From: Candidatus Saganbacteria bacterium
GTDB lineage: Bacteria > Margulisbacteria > WOR-1 > JAKLHX01
Direction: 5' to 3'
Assembly (NCBI GenBank): GCA_026387835.1
Contig: JAPLKZ010000013.1
Location: forward strand, 60,001 to 92,000
DNA length: 32,000 nt
Shown: in pieces, positions 10,275 to 31,024 of the stretch
Layout: the number at the start of each line of letters is the position of its first letter
Position numbering within the stretch: position 1 is the stretch's first letter
Notes under the pieces: generated by a model
What the model was told of the DNA's origin: nothing
What the model saw: the letters and a program-made list of their open reading frames with translations, nothing else
The model's database searches: none
Made by a program: the position numbers and the translations under genes

Positions 10275-11111
10275 ATGGAAATATCACGCATAGGAGCAGT
10301 GGGCGCGAGCCCTGTATCGTCTGCCCTTCCGTTCAAGGTGGGAATGCCGGGAGAACATATACCCGTCCATACACCCGCGGGGATGGAGATCAGGCAGAGG
10401 ATATTTCGTGGTTTCGGTATAGAGGTCCTTGACAGCGATGTCAGGTTCTCAAAAGCAGAACTCATTATGATCGAAAAGATCCTTTTGGACCTCAGAAAAA
10501 AGAAAAAAAACCATCTTCTTGGCGTCAAAGAGATCGTGAAGAACAAAGAAATGAGAGTAAGGCTTTTGAATAACGCTCTGATACATGCCGGCGGGGCTTA
10601 TGTGGCCGAACAAAAGCGCATATATCTTTTTGACGAGCTTCCTCAGGAAGAGATCCAGGAAGTCCTTGTCCACGAGATCGGGCACGCGGTAAACCATTTC
10701 AATCTTTCTTTCGAAAGGTTCATGGACTTTGTAAGGCAGAGCGGCTGGAACATGACCGAGATGAGAAGGGTGTTCTTCAACAGCAACCGGATGTACCAGT
10801 TCGGCGTGAAACCCCTGGAGATACCGAAGGACAAATGGGGGAACGTCTGGAACCGCTTCAGCCTGAACTCTCTCTCGAAGGACCAGGATACTTTCGGAGA
10901 GATATTTTTGCAGCTGCCGAGGAACACCGGCGCTCCGTGGGACAAGAACCCCCTTGAAAAGTTCGCGTGGGCTTACGAGTGGTTCTACGATAAAAAGGAC
11001 AGGTTCAAGCTGATCGCCGAAAAAGCAAAAGAAGAAGGAGACCCCACTTTGAGCGAAGCTTTCAAATTCATGGAAAAAGAAGTCTTTTCGGACGAAGAAC
11101 AAAAAAATTAA
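10275..11111 (+). CDS. Hypothetical zincin-like metallopeptidase-motif protein
   Basis: The ORF contains VLVHEIGHAVNH (HExxH), preceded by AGGAYV..KRIYLF, with a distal NPLEKFAWAYEWFY segment. No signal peptide and no clear SD. Confidence 0.55.
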   Translation: MEISRIGAVGASPVSSALPFKVGMPGEHIPVHTPAGMEIRQRIFRGFGIEVLDSDVRFSKAELIMIEKILLDLRKKKKNHLLGVKEIVKNKEMRVRLLNNALIHAGGAYVAEQKRIYLFDELPQEEIQEVLVHEIGHAVNHFNLSFERFMDFVRQSGWNMTEMRRVFFNSNRMYQFGVKPLEIPKDKWGNVWNRFSLNSLSKDQDTFGEIFLQLPRNTGAPWDKNPLEKFAWAYEWFYDKKDRFKLIAEKAKEEGDPTLSEAFKFMEKEVFSDEEQKN

Positions 11112-11162: not shown

Positions 11163-12602
11163 ATGATAATCAAGACCGATCAGGACACGATAAGACCATT
11201 CCTCGAGGATGCTTCAGGCCTGACCGGAGCGCACACGGATAAAGTATTCCTTGCAGAAAATACCGGAGAAGTTTCCGAATTGTTAAAAGAATGCTCTTCA
11301 AAAAATATTACCGTTACTGTCTCCGGCGGGGGCACGGGCGTGACAGGAGGCAGGCTTCCGTTTGAAGGAGTCGTTCTCGCGACGGACAGATTGAACAGAA
11401 TACTTGACCTTAAGCCTGGCTCGATAGTTGTCCAGTCCGGCGTGCCGATAACGGAAATTCATAAAGCAGCCGGTTCTATCGGATATTTTTACCCTCCGGA
11501 CGCTACGGAATGGACGGCTTTTATCGGGGGGAATATTGCCACAAACGCTTCGGGAGCGAGGACGTTTAAATACGGGGCGACGAGAAAATATATAAAGAGG
11601 ATAAAAGTTGTCCTGAGTAATGGAGATATTATCGATGTCGAAAGAGGCAGACTATTAGCAAAGAGTAATATTCTCGAAATCCGAAATACGAAATCCGAAA
11701 TTCGAAACAAATTCGAAATCCCAAATTATAAAATCCCAAATATAAAAAATGCGGCGGGGTATTATTCCAGGAAGAACATGGACCTGATCGATCTGTTCAT
11801 CGGAAGCGAAGGCACTCTCGGAGTGATCGCTGAAGCGGAATTAAGTTTGCTGAAAAAAGAGGGGTTTGTTTTCGCCTGTTTTTCATTCTTCAACAGATTG
11901 AACGACGCGCTCAACTTTGTGGCCGAAGCGAAAAAATGCGATGCGCTCGCGATAGAATTCTTTGATGCCAGGGCTCTGGACCTCTTGCGGACAAAATATC
12001 TTAACATGCCGAAAGCCGCTGCCTGCGTGTTCTTTGAGGAAGAGATCACTACGGAAAAAGAAAAAGATTATCTTGAAAGATGGGGAAACCTGCTGGAAAA
12101 ACACAATGTATCTTTGGACGACGTCTGGACATCGGAGACTCCCGAAAAAGCGCAGGAGTTCAAGGATATGAGACATTCTGTCCCCGAGCTTGTGAACGAG
12201 ATCGTAAAGAAAAGAGGCTTTCCGAAACTGGGGACGGATATTGCCGTGCCGGACAGGGCTTTTGCCGAAATGTTCGGTCTTTACGAAAAGACTTTGTTGT
12301 CCTCGAATATCGACAGCCTGATATTCGGGCATATCGGGGATAACCACCTTCACGTGAATATGCTTCCTAAAGACAGCGATGAGGCCGAAAAGGTCAAGGA
12401 CATCTATATTTCTTTTGTGAGGAGAGCAATAAGCCTGGGAGGGACCGTTTCGGCCGAGCACGGGATAGGGAAGATCAAGCACAGGTTCCTGAAAGAGATG
12501 TATGGCGACAGAGGGATACTGGAAATGACAAGGGTCAAGAAAAGTCTGGACCCGGATCTTATCTTAGGTTTGGGGAATATCTTTCCGAAGGAACTGCTTT
12601 AA
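11163..12602 (+). CDS. FAD-linked oxidase (GlcD / D-lactate dehydrogenase family)
   Basis: FAD_binding_4-type VTVSGGGTGVTGG, LFIGSEGTLGVI and C-terminal SAEHGIGKIK. It carries a repeat-derived insert (next feature). Confidence 0.85.
   Translation: MIIKTDQDTIRPFLEDASGLTGAHTDKVFLAENTGEVSELLKECSSKNITVTVSGGGTGVTGGRLPFEGVVLATDRLNRILDLKPGSIVVQSGVPITEIHKAAGSIGYFYPPDATEWTAFIGGNIATNASGARTFKYGATRKYIKRIKVVLSNGDIIDVERGRLLAKSNILEIRNTKSEIRNKFEIPNYKIPNIKNAAGYYSRKNMDLIDLFIGSEGTLGVIAEAELSLLKKEGFVFACFSFFNRLNDALNFVAEAKKCDALAIEFFDARALDLLRTKYLNMPKAAACVFFEEEITTEKEKDYLERWGNLLEKHNVSLDDVWTSETPEKAQEFKDMRHSVPELVNEIVKKRGFPKLGTDIAVPDRAFAEMFGLYEKTLLSSNIDSLIFGHIGDNHLHVNMLPKDSDEAEKVKDIYISFVRRAISLGGTVSAEHGIGKIKHRFLKEMYGDRGILEMTRVKKSLDPDLILGLGNIFPKELL
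11673..11750 (+). repeat. Heptamer-based repeat (CGAAATN units) in frame inside the FAD oxidase
   Basis: The DNA reads cgaaatc cgaaata cgaaatc cgaaatt cgaaac aaattcgaaatc ccaaatt ataaaatc ccaaata and translates to LEIRNTKSEIRNKFEIPNYKIPNIKN. Confidence 0.7.
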
Positions 12603-13694: not shown

Positions 13695-13835
13695 AAAAAC
13701 AACCTTGTTCCATCTCCCTGTAACTTCACATGTTCCCATGCTTTTCTAAACAAAACCGAAAATCCCTGAAATTTCGCAAAAGATATGACGATAGATATAT
13801 AGACGGGAATTAACAAAAAAAAGGAGAAATGAAAA

Positions 13836-14603
13836 ATGGCAATAGGAACGGTCATTGGCAGAATGAGAGTATCGAGTTTAACAGCAGGAAGGATGACATT
13901 AACGCCGATAGGAAGAAAGACGCATGTAAACCTTCCCGAAATGGTAAGGGTCGCCGGCGGGAAGTTCTCAATGGGCAGCACAAGATTTACTGATGCCCAG
14001 CCCCTAAGGCAGGTCACATTAAGGGATTTTGCGATAGGCAAATATCCTGTGACGAACGGTGAATACCTTGGTTTTCTTCAGGCAATGAATAGAGAAATAC
14101 CTCAACTTGTAGCTAGCACAAAATTTGCGTTACATCCTGTAGTAGATGTTTCATGGAACAACGCAACCGAATACTGCAAATTTCTAATGGAAACAACGGG
14201 CAGGAAGTTTGGTTTGCTTACAGAAGCACAGTGGGAATATGCGGCAGGAGGGACAGGAGGAAGAACATATCCGTGGGGAAATGAATGGGACGCGAGCAAA
14301 GCCGTATTCAATACATCTGGAACGCAACCTGTTAGCACGCATCCTGAAGGAGCAAGCTGGTGCGGTGCTATGCACATGTCAGGGAATGTATGGGAATGGG
14401 TACAGGATTGGTATGCAAATGGATATGACGCAAAAGCTTTAACGAATCCTACAGGGCCGGACAGTGGTACTTATAAGGTGTTGCGCGGCGGTTCCTGGTA
14501 TAACAGCGATTCTAATAGGCTGGATGCTGCGTACCGGATCTGCAACTTACCGGAGTTTCAGTACTACAATATCGGTTTCCGCCTCGCCGAGGACTTAAAA
14601 TAA
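13836..14603 (+). CDS. Formylglycine-generating-enzyme (FGE/SUMF1) fold protein, C-type-lectin-like
   Basis: VAGGKFSMGS, YPVTNGEY, WEYAAGG, YPWGN, NVWEWVQDWY and RGGSW...NIGFRLA. AAGGAG SD 9 nt upstream; no signal peptide. Confidence 0.85.
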   Translation: MAIGTVIGRMRVSSLTAGRMTLTPIGRKTHVNLPEMVRVAGGKFSMGSTRFTDAQPLRQVTLRDFAIGKYPVTNGEYLGFLQAMNREIPQLVASTKFALHPVVDVSWNNATEYCKFLMETTGRKFGLLTEAQWEYAAGGTGGRTYPWGNEWDASKAVFNTSGTQPVSTHPEGASWCGAMHMSGNVWEWVQDWYANGYDAKALTNPTGPDSGTYKVLRGGSWYNSDSNRLDAAYRICNLPEFQYYNIGFRLAEDLK

Positions 14604-14669
14604 TTAGTCCTTATGCCTTTGTCCCTTTACGCCTTTTCCGGCGTAAAAAAATTTGGGTGTGCAGAATAA

Positions 14670-14789
14670 ATGATTGAATCGGCTAATTCGATCACAAAAA
14701 CATATGACTTGATCAGATGGCTGATGCCTGTAGTTTCAAAATTCCCGAAATGCAAAAGGAAAAAAATGACACTACTTTGTATTCTATAG
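14670..14789 (+). pseudogene. Truncated Avd-like (DGR accessory, four-helix-bundle) N-terminal fragment
   Basis: A 39-codon ORF, MIESANSITKTYDLIRWLMPVVSKFPKCKRKKMTLLCIL. The KTYDLIxWxxPxVxKFPK pattern is what I recall at the N-terminus of Avd-type proteins, but the reading frame ends right after helix 1. Confidence 0.4.
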
Positions 14790-14907
14790 CCACATAGTTT
14801 ATTCCAAAATCAAGTGAAATTCACTAATAAAAATGACGACAAATATATGAAGTCAAAAAGACCTAATACACTAATGACCTTTAATAAGATGAAAGGGAGA
14901 AAAAGAA

Positions 14908-15501
14908 ATGAACGCTACTAATCCAAGTCTATTAGCAAAGATCGTTCCATGTAGAGCCGCGGCGATATCAAGGGCGATGAATTTCGCGGCCCAGGGAAAA
15001 ATTCCAAATTTAGAACTGTCCGGGATAACAAGACTTAGACAAAGTGGATATCAATACCTTCATTTCACAAGTTTTTCACGTGTTGCTCAAGGAAATCCTC
15101 GTCCAGCTGTGTCGGTCTGCGCAAGAACTTTGGATCAAGGTAAAGACATCACTATTAATCAAATATCGTTCCAGCACGCATTGGCGGCCCTTGATGTTCT
15201 TGGGTTACTAGCATGGAGCCCGAGACGTGCTAAAGCCATTTCAGAAAGACTTTCTGCTTTTCCAGATCCTAATTATGTAATGTCACGAAGTGTCCCGAAT
15301 ATGTGGCTGGAAGATAATCATGATATCAAGATCATGCTTTTGGGCGGACAAGTTTCATTTAAGGCGACTTATCATCAGTGGGATTCAGGACATTATGATA
15401 AAAGATTTACACATACAAATCTTTTTAATGCAATAATAATAGCGGCCGGCCGGCAGCTCGTTCTAAATCTAGATAAGAACGAACTTTTCACTCCGGCGTA
15501 G
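14908..15501 (+). CDS. Hypothetical protein, no recognisable domain
   Basis: A 197-aa ORF with an AGGGAG SD 8-9 nt upstream. The region looks more AT-rich by eye. No motifs recognised. Confidence 0.6.
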   Translation: MNATNPSLLAKIVPCRAAAISRAMNFAAQGKIPNLELSGITRLRQSGYQYLHFTSFSRVAQGNPRPAVSVCARTLDQGKDITINQISFQHALAALDVLGLLAWSPRRAKAISERLSAFPDPNYVMSRSVPNMWLEDNHDIKIMLLGGQVSFKATYHQWDSGHYDKRFTHTNLFNAIIIAAGRQLVLNLDKNELFTPA

Positions 15502-15590
15502 CTACTCGCAGTTCTTTTCAACAGATTCTTTTTGGAGCGGTATAGCTGCTATTTGGACACAGGACTTATGCTTAATTACCACAGATAGCG

Positions 15591-15599
15591 TGTTATAAT
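15591..15599 (+). promoter_or_regulatory. Extended -10 element TGtTATAAT, 6 nt upstream of the ruvC ATG
   Basis: TGtTATAAT-ctctcc-ATG(15606), with no SD. Confidence 0.5.
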
Positions 15600-15605
15600 C
15601 TCTCC

Positions 15606-20053: not shown

Positions 20054-20090
20054 GCATTTTGAATTTCGCGCTTCGAATTTCGAATTTTTA
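20054..20090 (-). repeat. Heptamer repeat copy filling the pdxA-rsmA intergenic spacer
   Basis: The minus strand reads taaaaattc gaaattc gaagcgc gaaattc aaaatgc ATG. It runs from the pdxA stop codon to the rsmA start codon. Confidence 0.65.
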
Positions 20091-29872: not shown

Positions 29873-31024
29873 GTGAAAAAACGCATCGCAGTACTGGGTT
29901 CAACAGGATCTATCGGAAAGCAGGTACTGGAAGCAGTATCTGCCTTTCCTTCTTTATTTACCATAAACGGGCTTGCCACTAAAGGTTATCTCGATATTTT
30001 CAAAAAGCAGATAAAAGAATTTAAACCAAAGCATGCTATTGTCAACGATGAGAAAGGATTGATAAAAATTGCTACAGATCCCGGCACGGATATCGTAGTG
30101 ATGTCGATCGTCGGGACAGCGGGACTTCCGGCAACCATAGCCGCAATAAAAAAAGGAAAGACGATCCTTCTTGCAAGCAAAGAAATACTTGTTGCTGCCG
30201 GGGATATTGTGATGCCTCTGGCAAAGAAGTACAGAGCTAAGATTCTTCCTCTGGATAGCGAGCACAGCGCGGTATTTCAGTGTCTTGGAGGAAAATCCGA
30301 AATCCGAAGCACGAAATCCCCCTCGACTTCGCTCGGGGCAAGCGAAAAAAATTCAAAATTCAAAATTCAAAACAACAGAATAAAAAAAATAATCCTCACT
30401 GCATCAGGCGGGCCGTTCAGGGCATATTCAAAAGCCCAACTGAAAAAAGTGACCGCAAAACAGGCCCTGGCGCATCCTACATGGAAGATGGGGCCGAAAA
30501 TAACGATAGATTCTGCTACGCTGATGAACAAAGGACTTGAGGTCATTGAAGCGCATCATCTTTTCGGGGTTCCTTATGACAAGATCGAGGTCGTCGTTCA
30601 TCCGCAGAGCATAATCCATTCGATGGTGGAATTCACCGACGGCTCTATTCTTGCTCAGATGGGAGCCCCTGATATGAGGACTCCGATACAGTATGCGCTT
30701 CATTATCCTGACAGGGCACCGAAGAGCTTTGAGACCATCGATATTTCAAAAGCCGGCCAATTAACATTTGAAAAACCGGACGCGGATAGGTTTCCGTGTC
30801 TAAAGATTGCATATCAAGCGGGAAAAACAGGCGGGACCATGCCGGCCGTGATGTCCGCGGCGAACGATACTGCGGTCGAGATGTTCCTTAAAGGCAAGAT
30901 CAGGTTCACGGATATTCCGAAGATAGTTTTATCGGTAATGAAAAAGCATGAGTTTATCAGAAAACCTTCACTTGCTCAGATACTCAAAGCGGAGAAATGG
31001 GCGAGAACTGAAGCGGGTGTATAA
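29873..31024 (+). CDS. dxr: 1-deoxy-D-xylulose-5-phosphate reductoisomerase
   Basis: [33 protein letters not shown] and NKGLEVIEA motifs, with a GTG start. It contains a repeat-derived insert (next feature). Confidence 0.92.
30291..30376 (+). repeat. Heptamer repeat with GC-rich core, in frame inside dxr
   Basis: The DNA reads gaaaatc cgaaatc cgaagca cgaaatc - ccctcgacttcgctcggggcaagcg - aaaaaaattc aaaattc aaaattc aaaac. It translates to [27 protein letters not shown]. Confidence 0.7.

Follow-up and report, generated by a model that had tools for sequence, protein, structure and literature searches.

In the diversity-generating retroelement (DGR) of phage BPP-1, which comprises the variable region (VR) of mtd, the initiation of mutagenic homing sequence (IMH), a hairpin/cruciform, avd, the template repeat (TR) and the reverse transcriptase (RT) gene brt, sequence is transferred from TR to VR in an adenine-specific manner, with Avd as accessory protein; the 3′ end of the VR is GC-rich and carries bases that discriminate VR from TR, and an inverted repeat lies 4–34 bp downstream (PMC3240598). 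In Treponema denticola, the DGR diversifies TvpA (2y3c), a small C-type-lectin-fold protein of the formylglycine-generating enzyme (FGE)-sulfatase subclass, without formylglycine-generating activity; its VR takes up the final ~40 codons, with GFR at the end, and several paralogous targets are scattered in the genome (PMC5758913). FGE-fold targets, remote paralogous targets (as in Treponema) and action in trans are all established (PMC5758913). A locus comparable to both systems is found in a stretch of 32 kb of the Candidatus Saganbacteria contig JAPLKZ010000013.1 (positions 60,001–92,000; "the window" is this whole stretch of 32,000 nucleotides), where a gene for a 255-aa FGE-fold protein ends in a tail that, judging from its homology, is by descent a DGR VR. 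We consider, with a probability of roughly 0.7, that this is an orphaned VR in a truncated cassette whose retroelement was lost, and that it represents a relic of a known system, not a working DGR.

The window locus has in common with T. denticola the type of target, the position and ending of the VR and the presence of paralogous targets elsewhere, the sequence similarity of TvpA to the window protein being distant (E 3e-12). It differs in that an intact RT/TR serves the remote copies of T. denticola, whereas here avd is truncated and no cognate RT or TR was found; the truncated avd points to a broken or partly copied cassette and not to a clean remote target. The logic shared with BPP-1 includes the adenine-specific transfer, the Avd accessory protein, the GC-rich VR 3′ end with its discriminating bases and the inverted repeat downstream; in contrast, the family to which the window copy belongs has the order target-avd-RT-TR, with the TR after the RT, it is chromosomal and not phage-borne, and the window copy lacks both RT and TR. 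Inactivated DGRs were described in the DiGReF survey, with RTs truncated by insertion, nonsense or frameshift mutation (PMC3521204). As in those, an adenine-substitution footprint in the target accompanies the disruption of an essential component; however, the DiGReF cases keep a recognisable RT and TR, while the window locus is devoid of the whole RT-TR module and retains 30 avd codons. Roux et al. (2021) stated that their own survey was unable to detect remote targets (PMC8144416); RT-anchored surveys miss orphan VRs and, therefore, such orphans may be common and could mark past accelerated evolution. No paper mentioning DGRs and Saganbacteria together was found in the literature searched.

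The features of the locus are as follows; L001, L002 and L204 are three related cassettes, described below.

13767–13800, plus strand: promoter-like upstream motif TGAAATT-N12-ATGACGATAGATATAT, at the 5′ edge of the cassette homology
13836–14603, plus strand: target gene, an intact open reading frame (ORF) of 255 aa, with FGE-sulfatase/C-type-lectin fold; DGR variable protein
14472–14599, plus strand: VR, homologue of the VR/TR repeat of related cassettes, from the alignment to the L001, L002 and L204 VR/TR pairs
14579–14599, plus strand: GC-rich, IMH-like 3′ end of the VR, with a VR-specific G at 14592
14627–14646, plus strand: candidate target-recognition hairpin TTACGCC-TTTTCC-GGCGTAA, from DNA folding and conservation in the relatives
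14670–14759, plus strand: avd stub, codons 1–30, from NF033474 and tblastn to the L001 Avd; the frame continues to a stop at 14787–14789
14760–15605, plus strand: AT-rich non-homologous segment in place of the rest of avd, RT and TR; GC 0.39

Homology of the tail to the variable regions of intact cassettes

The relatives used for comparison are L001 (Joint Genome Institute, JGI, Ga0172375_10002937), L002/L004 (CAYUCV010000001.1) and L204, of Margulisiibacteriota type (P0010/P0250/P0124), which was obtained from a metagenome scan. L001, L002 and L204 are bona fide DGRs, of a family that occurs in Margulisiibacteriota/Saganbacteria-like bacteria. The intact cassettes show, in this order, the promoter motif, an FGE-fold target with C-terminal VR, the hairpin spacer, avd, RT, TR and a structured RNA; L001 and L002 encode bAvd (PF22296, 113 aa) and an RVT_1 RT (334 aa), directly followed by the repeat of the tail, and the RT motifs are IGNLTSQ and YMDD. 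The cognate VR/TR pairs of L001, L002 and L204 contain 20, 14 and 16 mismatches per 100 nt, respectively, 100% of which are located at TR adenines.

Positions 13821–14759 of the window align to the L001 cassette with 77% nucleotide identity (E = 0), and positions 13759–14758 align to L002; both alignments stop at avd codon 30, and the homology thus comprises the upstream motif, the whole gene, the VR, the hairpin spacer and avd up to exactly its 30th codon. The sister cassettes share the upstream motif, the hairpin and the VR register with the window copy; the targets have 69–62% identity at the protein level, while the spacer and the avd start show 83–86% nucleotide identity with L001 and L204, and ~81% with L002. 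The sisters, unlike the window copy, continue into avd (113 aa), RT (334 aa), TR and post-TR RNA; moreover, they sit at ribF/rpsO and at yajQ/aspartate kinase, whereas the window copy is placed between rluD and ruvC. Since the nucleotide homology to intact cassettes spans gene, VR, spacer and avd start, the window tail is a homologue of proven VRs, and hence a DGR variable region by descent. The earlier note had proposed from the sequence alone that the tail is a DGR VR, and this proposal is borne out by the homology to VRs with adenine-only TR partners in three intact cassettes. The VR could be recognised without an own TR or RT: homology to the sister cassettes and the leftover avd stub sufficed.

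The window VR aligns with the L001 VR (10637–10764) and the L001 TR (12171–12298), and likewise with the VR/TR pairs of L002 and L204. Compared with the TRs of the three relatives, it is mismatched at 14–15 of the 33 adenines and at 6–12 of the 67 remaining positions (Fisher P 3e-4 to 7e-3), corresponding to 42–45% and 9–18%, respectively. Non-cognate VR/TR pairs carry 4–13 extra non-adenine differences; the 6–12 non-adenine mismatches of the window VR are at this same level, indicating that the TRs of the relatives are not its cognate ones. The variable codons of the window VR fall within 14499–14570. When 14 homologues are compared, the 11 codons templated by TR-N/K codons have a mean pairwise identity of 0.13, the remaining VR codons one of 0.53 and the protein outside the VR one of 0.63, figures which are comparisons between genes and not within one population; hypervariability across the family is restricted to the AAY/AAA-templated codons.

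The earlier note had also regarded the abundance of NNY codons between TGG and ATCGGTTTCCGC as the pattern of diversified AAY codons. The count (16/24) is right, and all ten AAY-templated codons of the window VR (10/10) retain a third-position pyrimidine, which explains the high number; however, the NNY background in the window ORFs is 48%, the binomial P for 16/24 is ~0.05 and 16 or more NNY codons occur in 7% of all 24-codon windows, so that the enrichment was rejected as stand-alone evidence.

The fold attributed to the protein in the earlier note, that of C-type lectins and FGEs, is confirmed by Pfam PF03781 (FGE-sulfatase), which covers the 255 aa end to end (E 3e-48, profile positions 2–254/255), and by the Protein Data Bank matches, which include FGEs together with TvpA (2y3c, E 3e-12). 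The protein ends in ...KVLRGGSWYNSDSNRLDAAYRICNLPEFQYYNIGFRLAEDLK, followed by the stop codon at 14601–14603; fold and VR in the last ~40 codons are those of a DGR variable protein. It is 100% identical to MCX5749965.1, from the Candidatus Saganbacteria metagenome-assembled genome (MAG) on a contig of 165,873 bp, and its nearest full-length homologues, P0002 (69%) and P0005 (62%), are both encoded inside complete DGR cassettes, in L001 and L002/L003/L004.

The similarity to FGEs raises the question of whether this might be an ordinary member of the FGE family, in which RGGSW...IGFR is a family-wide C-terminal motif with no DGR history and the likeness to a VR is due to the common fold. Indeed, true FGEs, EgtB and similar proteins also conserve RGGS...GFR, and the NNY enrichment is not significant by itself. 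Against this stand the nucleotide homology to three complete cassettes, which goes on beyond the gene to include spacer, hairpin and 90 nt of avd, the adenine bias of the mismatches to the family TRs and the hypervariability located exactly at the TR-N/K codons. Furthermore, the catalytic cysteine pair of FGEs is absent: in alignments to the FGE structures 6muj, 2q17, 6s07 and 2afy, examined for the motif ...GGS(F/Y)LCHxSYCxRYR..., the first Cys of the GGS(F/Y)LCHxSYC segment falls in a 2-residue gap and the second is opposite to a Ser. Thus, an ordinary FGE-family protein appears very improbable. The scores of the NCBIfam enzyme models against the 255-aa protein are far under their cutoffs. 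By analogy with TvpA, the protein is best described as a non-catalytic scaffold, presumably for binding, and not as an enzyme; the current name, "SUMF1/EgtB/PvdO family nonheme iron enzyme", is wrong and should read non-catalytic DGR variable protein. The gene is still intact and probably expressed.

Cis elements, avd stub and junction

The 3′ end of the VR (14579–14599) carries GAGGAC, with G at 14592, as do all five VRs examined (5/5, the one in the window included), while the three TRs (3/3) have GAGCAC, with C at this position. Compared with the BPP-1 arrangement, this GC-rich end may be an IMH/IMH*-like discriminator with a role in homing directionality. Beside it, a second small inverted repeat, AGGACT...AGTCCT (14590–14611), extends across the stop codon and the end of the TR/VR homology; it is conserved only in part in L001 and L204.

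The hairpin noted earlier, ACGCC-TTTTCC-GGCGT at 14629–14644, is present at that place and its stem is longer than was described, as it extends to 7 bp (TTACGCC/GGCGTAA, 14627–14646). It starts 28 nt past the end of the TR/VR homology; the surrounding 83 nt fold at -11 kcal/mol, compared with -5.4 for shuffled sequences (z = -2.8), and both position and sequence are kept in L001 and L204, while they are degenerate in L002. Hairpins of phage DGRs lie 4–34 bp downstream of the VR and have GC-rich stems of 7–10 bp with a 4-nt GRNA loop (PMC3240598); the window hairpin falls in this range of distances, but its 7-bp stem has only four G-C pairs and its loop is a 6-nt TTTTCC and not GRNA. It is listed as a candidate DGR target-recognition element, a putative function based on position, fold and conservation and not on covariation. 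The hairpin was not called as an intrinsic terminator by terminator prediction, since it has no T-run.

The upstream motif at 13767–13800 also precedes the FGE-fold target genes of L001 (9891–9915), L002 (6093–6117) and L204 (1034–1058), and it is found in a further locus, L218, at 497–521. In the form TGAAATT-N12-ATGACGAYARATATAT it has exactly two copies in the window (0.04–0.07 expected), at 13767–13800 and 14815–14848, the former ahead of the DGR target gene and the latter ahead of an ORFan located past the truncated avd. The motif may act as a promoter or operator associated with these cassettes.

Past the hairpin, the ORF 14670–14789 reads MIESANSITKTYDLIRWLMPVVSKFPKCKR and then KKMTLLCIL to the stop, the sequence past codon 30 being unrelated to avd. 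The Avd-like fragment that the earlier note had seen beyond the VR is confirmed: the ORF matches the NCBIfam model NF033474 "DGR protein Avd" (E 6e-4, profile positions 4–26/104, 20 bits, with a cutoff of 80), and the stub is 90% identical to residues 1–30 of the L001 Avd (tblastn E 2e-14) and identical at 28/30 residues to P0250, which is named DGR Avd at NCBI. Avd of complete DGRs is a four-helix bundle of about 110–130 aa, and it has 113 aa in the full-length relatives; codons 1–30 only are present here and 83 codons are missing. In comparison with the intact relatives, 8–10 codons of the stub differ synonymously and 2–3 non-synonymously; changes are mostly silent, and the stub therefore belonged to a functional avd through most of its past.

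The homology to the cassettes stops at 14759, i.e., at avd codon 30. It is followed by 148 nt of AT-rich sequence and then by an ORFan of 197 aa (14908–15501, MCX5749966.1), whose GC content at third codon positions, 0.33, is the minimum of the window (mean 0.55; z = -3.1); this segment looks compositionally foreign. No Pfam, NCBIfam or PADLOC match was obtained for the ORFan, and only four weak hits were found among 1.8 billion representative proteins; being without family match and essentially without homologues, it was rejected as a DGR or defence component.

An abrupt end of homology might also arise from misassembly, with a complete cassette in the organism and a chimeric join at 14759/14760 due to repeat collapse among paralogous cassettes; the MAG did break at paralogous FGE-fold genes, as the fragments P0015, P0018, P0031 and P0032 are found at contig ends. 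However, eight independent Logan assemblies, from other sequencing runs, match the window without mismatch for up to 11 kb, into ruvC/ruvA and beyond. Seven of the eight start at 14476 and, therefore, carry identical VR, avd stub and junction, crossing the latter into ruvC/ruvA with zero mismatches. The agreement of seven independent assemblies on VR and junction leaves an artefact of assembly hardly credible.

Orphaned region or target served in trans

In every intact cassette of the group, the TR is immediately followed by a conserved structured element of ~130 nt, with an outer stem GCCGGAA/TTTTGGC, an inner hairpin TCCGCA/TGCGGA and a stem CCAGGGC/GCCTGG. The covariance model R1, built on this element, also detects it in L219, an independent DGR (E 2e-25). 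The element is probably equivalent to the spacer RNA of BPP-1, which supports priming. As far as the scan of the window shows, it corresponds to no Rfam family. Its positions are as follows.

L001, 12301–12415: post-TR element
L204, 3459–3590: post-TR element
L002, 8540–8650: post-TR element
L087, 11100–11200: post-TR element
L219, 1435–1613: post-TR element

The region read is 32 kb of the 165,873-bp contig, and the absence of RT, TR and RNA element holds for this window. Elsewhere in it, the 126-nt tail is matched without gaps at 54/126 positions at best, and no repeat family covers the tail; the best tblastn hit with the L001 RT has E 1.2; and the best match of covariance model R1 reaches 10.8 bits (E 0.21). 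The search advised in the earlier note, for a near-copy of the tail and a DGR-type RT, was thus run on the 32 kb and neither was found, in agreement with what had been seen there at first. To the right of the junction, blastn (word size 7), a search with 17-mers at up to 3 mismatches and the covariance model all failed to reveal any remnant of the 3′ part of the cassette. The other window ORFs of at least 100 aa belong to housekeeping families or have no RT domain. Of the parts of a complete DGR, an RT with motif 4 [ILV]GxxxSQ and YxDD, a cognate TR, a full Avd and a post-TR RNA are all absent from the window. With avd cut at codon 30 and RT, TR and post-TR RNA missing, a working DGR at this locus is not supported.

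The search for a cognate RT was extended beyond the window. Among 5.8 billion proteins, no cognate RT or Avd was found on contigs equal in length to those that bear the paralogues of the MAG, and all RTs at least 79% identical to that of the cassette family stem from other organisms; searches of the same-run Logan assemblies likewise yielded neither an RT nor an Avd of the family. In the adjoining accession range a single RT was found, P0166 (MCX5750908), a candidate for the same genome; it belongs to another assembly (GCA_026387795.1) and was rejected as cognate, as it serves a different target and TR (FRSFHNENRNNNYNPENRYNNNAFRLV); the RT P0127 was rejected as cognate, as it comes from another sample. 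A scan of JGI metagenomes with the constant 21-mer of the VR 5′ part returned relatives (L204, L218 and the L001 contig) and not the own population of the window.

These data are best accommodated by an orphaned VR. Retrohoming presumably took place at the window copy in the past: the RT would have copied the TR RNA, misincorporating at adenines, and the cDNA would have replaced the VR, steered by the GC-rich 3′ end and the hairpin, with the rewriting of ~11 AAY/AAA-templated codons on the ligand-binding surface. The window VR would have been written from a TR encoding roughly GGSW-YNNNSNKLDAAYRNNNKPENQNNN-IGFRLAEHL. At this place the cassette is now broken: 83 avd codons, RT, TR and post-TR RNA are absent, and the AT-rich ORFan segment stands in their place. 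The 3′ part of a once-complete cassette may have been deleted or replaced; alternatively, promoter, target, hairpin and avd stub only may have been copied by partial duplication, and the two origins fit equally well. The VR is most likely frozen in its last state, non-adenine substitutions may have accumulated in it since the loss, and the locus would now be inactive. The VR is identical in seven runs, but this was rejected as a sign of inactivity: in those runs the intact P0166 DGR likewise has an unchanging VR, so that invariance across samples is uninformative on activity.

The paralogues of the target have to be considered at this point. Their membership of the same MAG was judged by consecutive accession numbers, and they are the following.

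P0013: full-length paralogue
P0015 and P0018: N-terminal fragments at contig ends
P0031 (MCX5749902): first gene of the same contig, ~63 genes and about 60 kb upstream
P0032 (MCX5749901): last gene of another contig

The tails of the paralogues differ from the window tail at adenine-templated codons, and P0032 shares the non-adenine signature SN.LD of the window VR, which suggests that one TR once served both. In a separate observation on these genes, two paralogues are each split across contig ends (MCX5749378, MCX5749392, MCX5749901, MCX5749902), with N- and C-terminal fragments overlapping in identical 38 aa; the breaks of the assembly thus fell on a repeat common to paralogous targets, of which the genome has at least four. 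As for the Logan contigs, L091–L096 and L098 all start at 14476, where the earliest 31-mer to include the first VR-specific base (G14506) begins; this common start indicates that a second copy of the constant 5′ part of the VR/TR is present in the same samples.

Several of these points weigh against the loss of the retroelement. At least three further paralogues are found in the MAG and, going by its sequence, P0032 suggests a common TR at some time; the second copy of the constant 5′ part may be a TR or a paralogous VR; the cis features thought to be necessary for homing are all intact; and a cognate TR-RT acting in trans from elsewhere in the genome is possible, as 32 kb out of 165,873 bp were read. 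All this would fit an active remote target, whose VR is rewritten in trans by a complete DGR elsewhere in the genome and whose avd stub is a by-product of copying. The G14592 VR-type 3′ end and the conserved hairpin, the tails of P0013, P0031 and P0032, the two additional N-terminal fragments, the SN.LD signature and the breaks of the Logan contigs are all in favour of it, and remote targets at distances above 100 kb are on record for DGRs other than those of phages (PMC5758913). On the other side, neither the contigs equal in length to the paralogue-bearing ones nor the same-run Logan assemblies yielded an RT or Avd of the family, the RTs at least 79% identical to it are all from other organisms, the TR of P0166 is unrelated, and the readable P0013 locus (L084–L086), as well as the related orphan L218 (encoding P0008), was found to contain no avd, RT, TR or post-TR element. 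An active remote target is therefore a tentative alternative, with a limited though not negligible likelihood. Its more specific form, in which an unassembled or unbinned DGR continues to diversify at least four FGE-fold targets in trans, the window VR among them, is slightly less likely again. If true, the upstream motif, the VR 3′ end, the hairpin and perhaps the first 90 nt of avd would be a portable cis unit that makes DGR targets, and networks of such targets would spread by partial duplication of cassettes.

With the orphaned VR as the preferred explanation, the locus would represent a natural end state of DGRs, in which a diversified binding protein is kept after the mutagenic machinery was lost or never co-copied. 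Its main value lies in a worked example of an orphan VR and in the correction of an enzyme annotation.

Further features of the relatives and of the window

Two observations concern the sister cassettes. In L204, positions 1870–1872 are an in-frame TAG in the VR, derived from an AAA codon of the TR, and the target is cut to 245 aa (P0010); this is a natural case of DGR mutagenesis creating a stop codon in an otherwise intact cassette. At positions 60–230 of L002/L004, the 3′ end of a second TR (…NNNIGFRVAKH) is followed by a second copy of the post-TR element, and two DGRs are therefore present within 8 kb of that genome.

The other genes of the window are housekeeping genes of the chromosome, namely rsfS, lytR, argC/J/B, rluD, ruvC/A, ksgA, pdxA, a lipA-like gene, ilvB/N/C and dxr; Rfam and tRNA scans of the window gave no match. 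Tandem heptamer repeats (CGAAATC / AAATCCG / AAAATTC) occur at 11675–11747, 30293–30372 and 20056–20087. The first array is in frame inside an FAD-linked oxidase gene, where it encodes the peptide LEIRNTKSEIRNKFEIPNYKIPN; the second is in frame inside Dxr (KSEIRSTKS...KNSKFKIQN), making the Pfam domain ~24 residues larger, and the third is intergenic. The arrays look like a small repeat that inserts into coding sequences without disruption of the frame.

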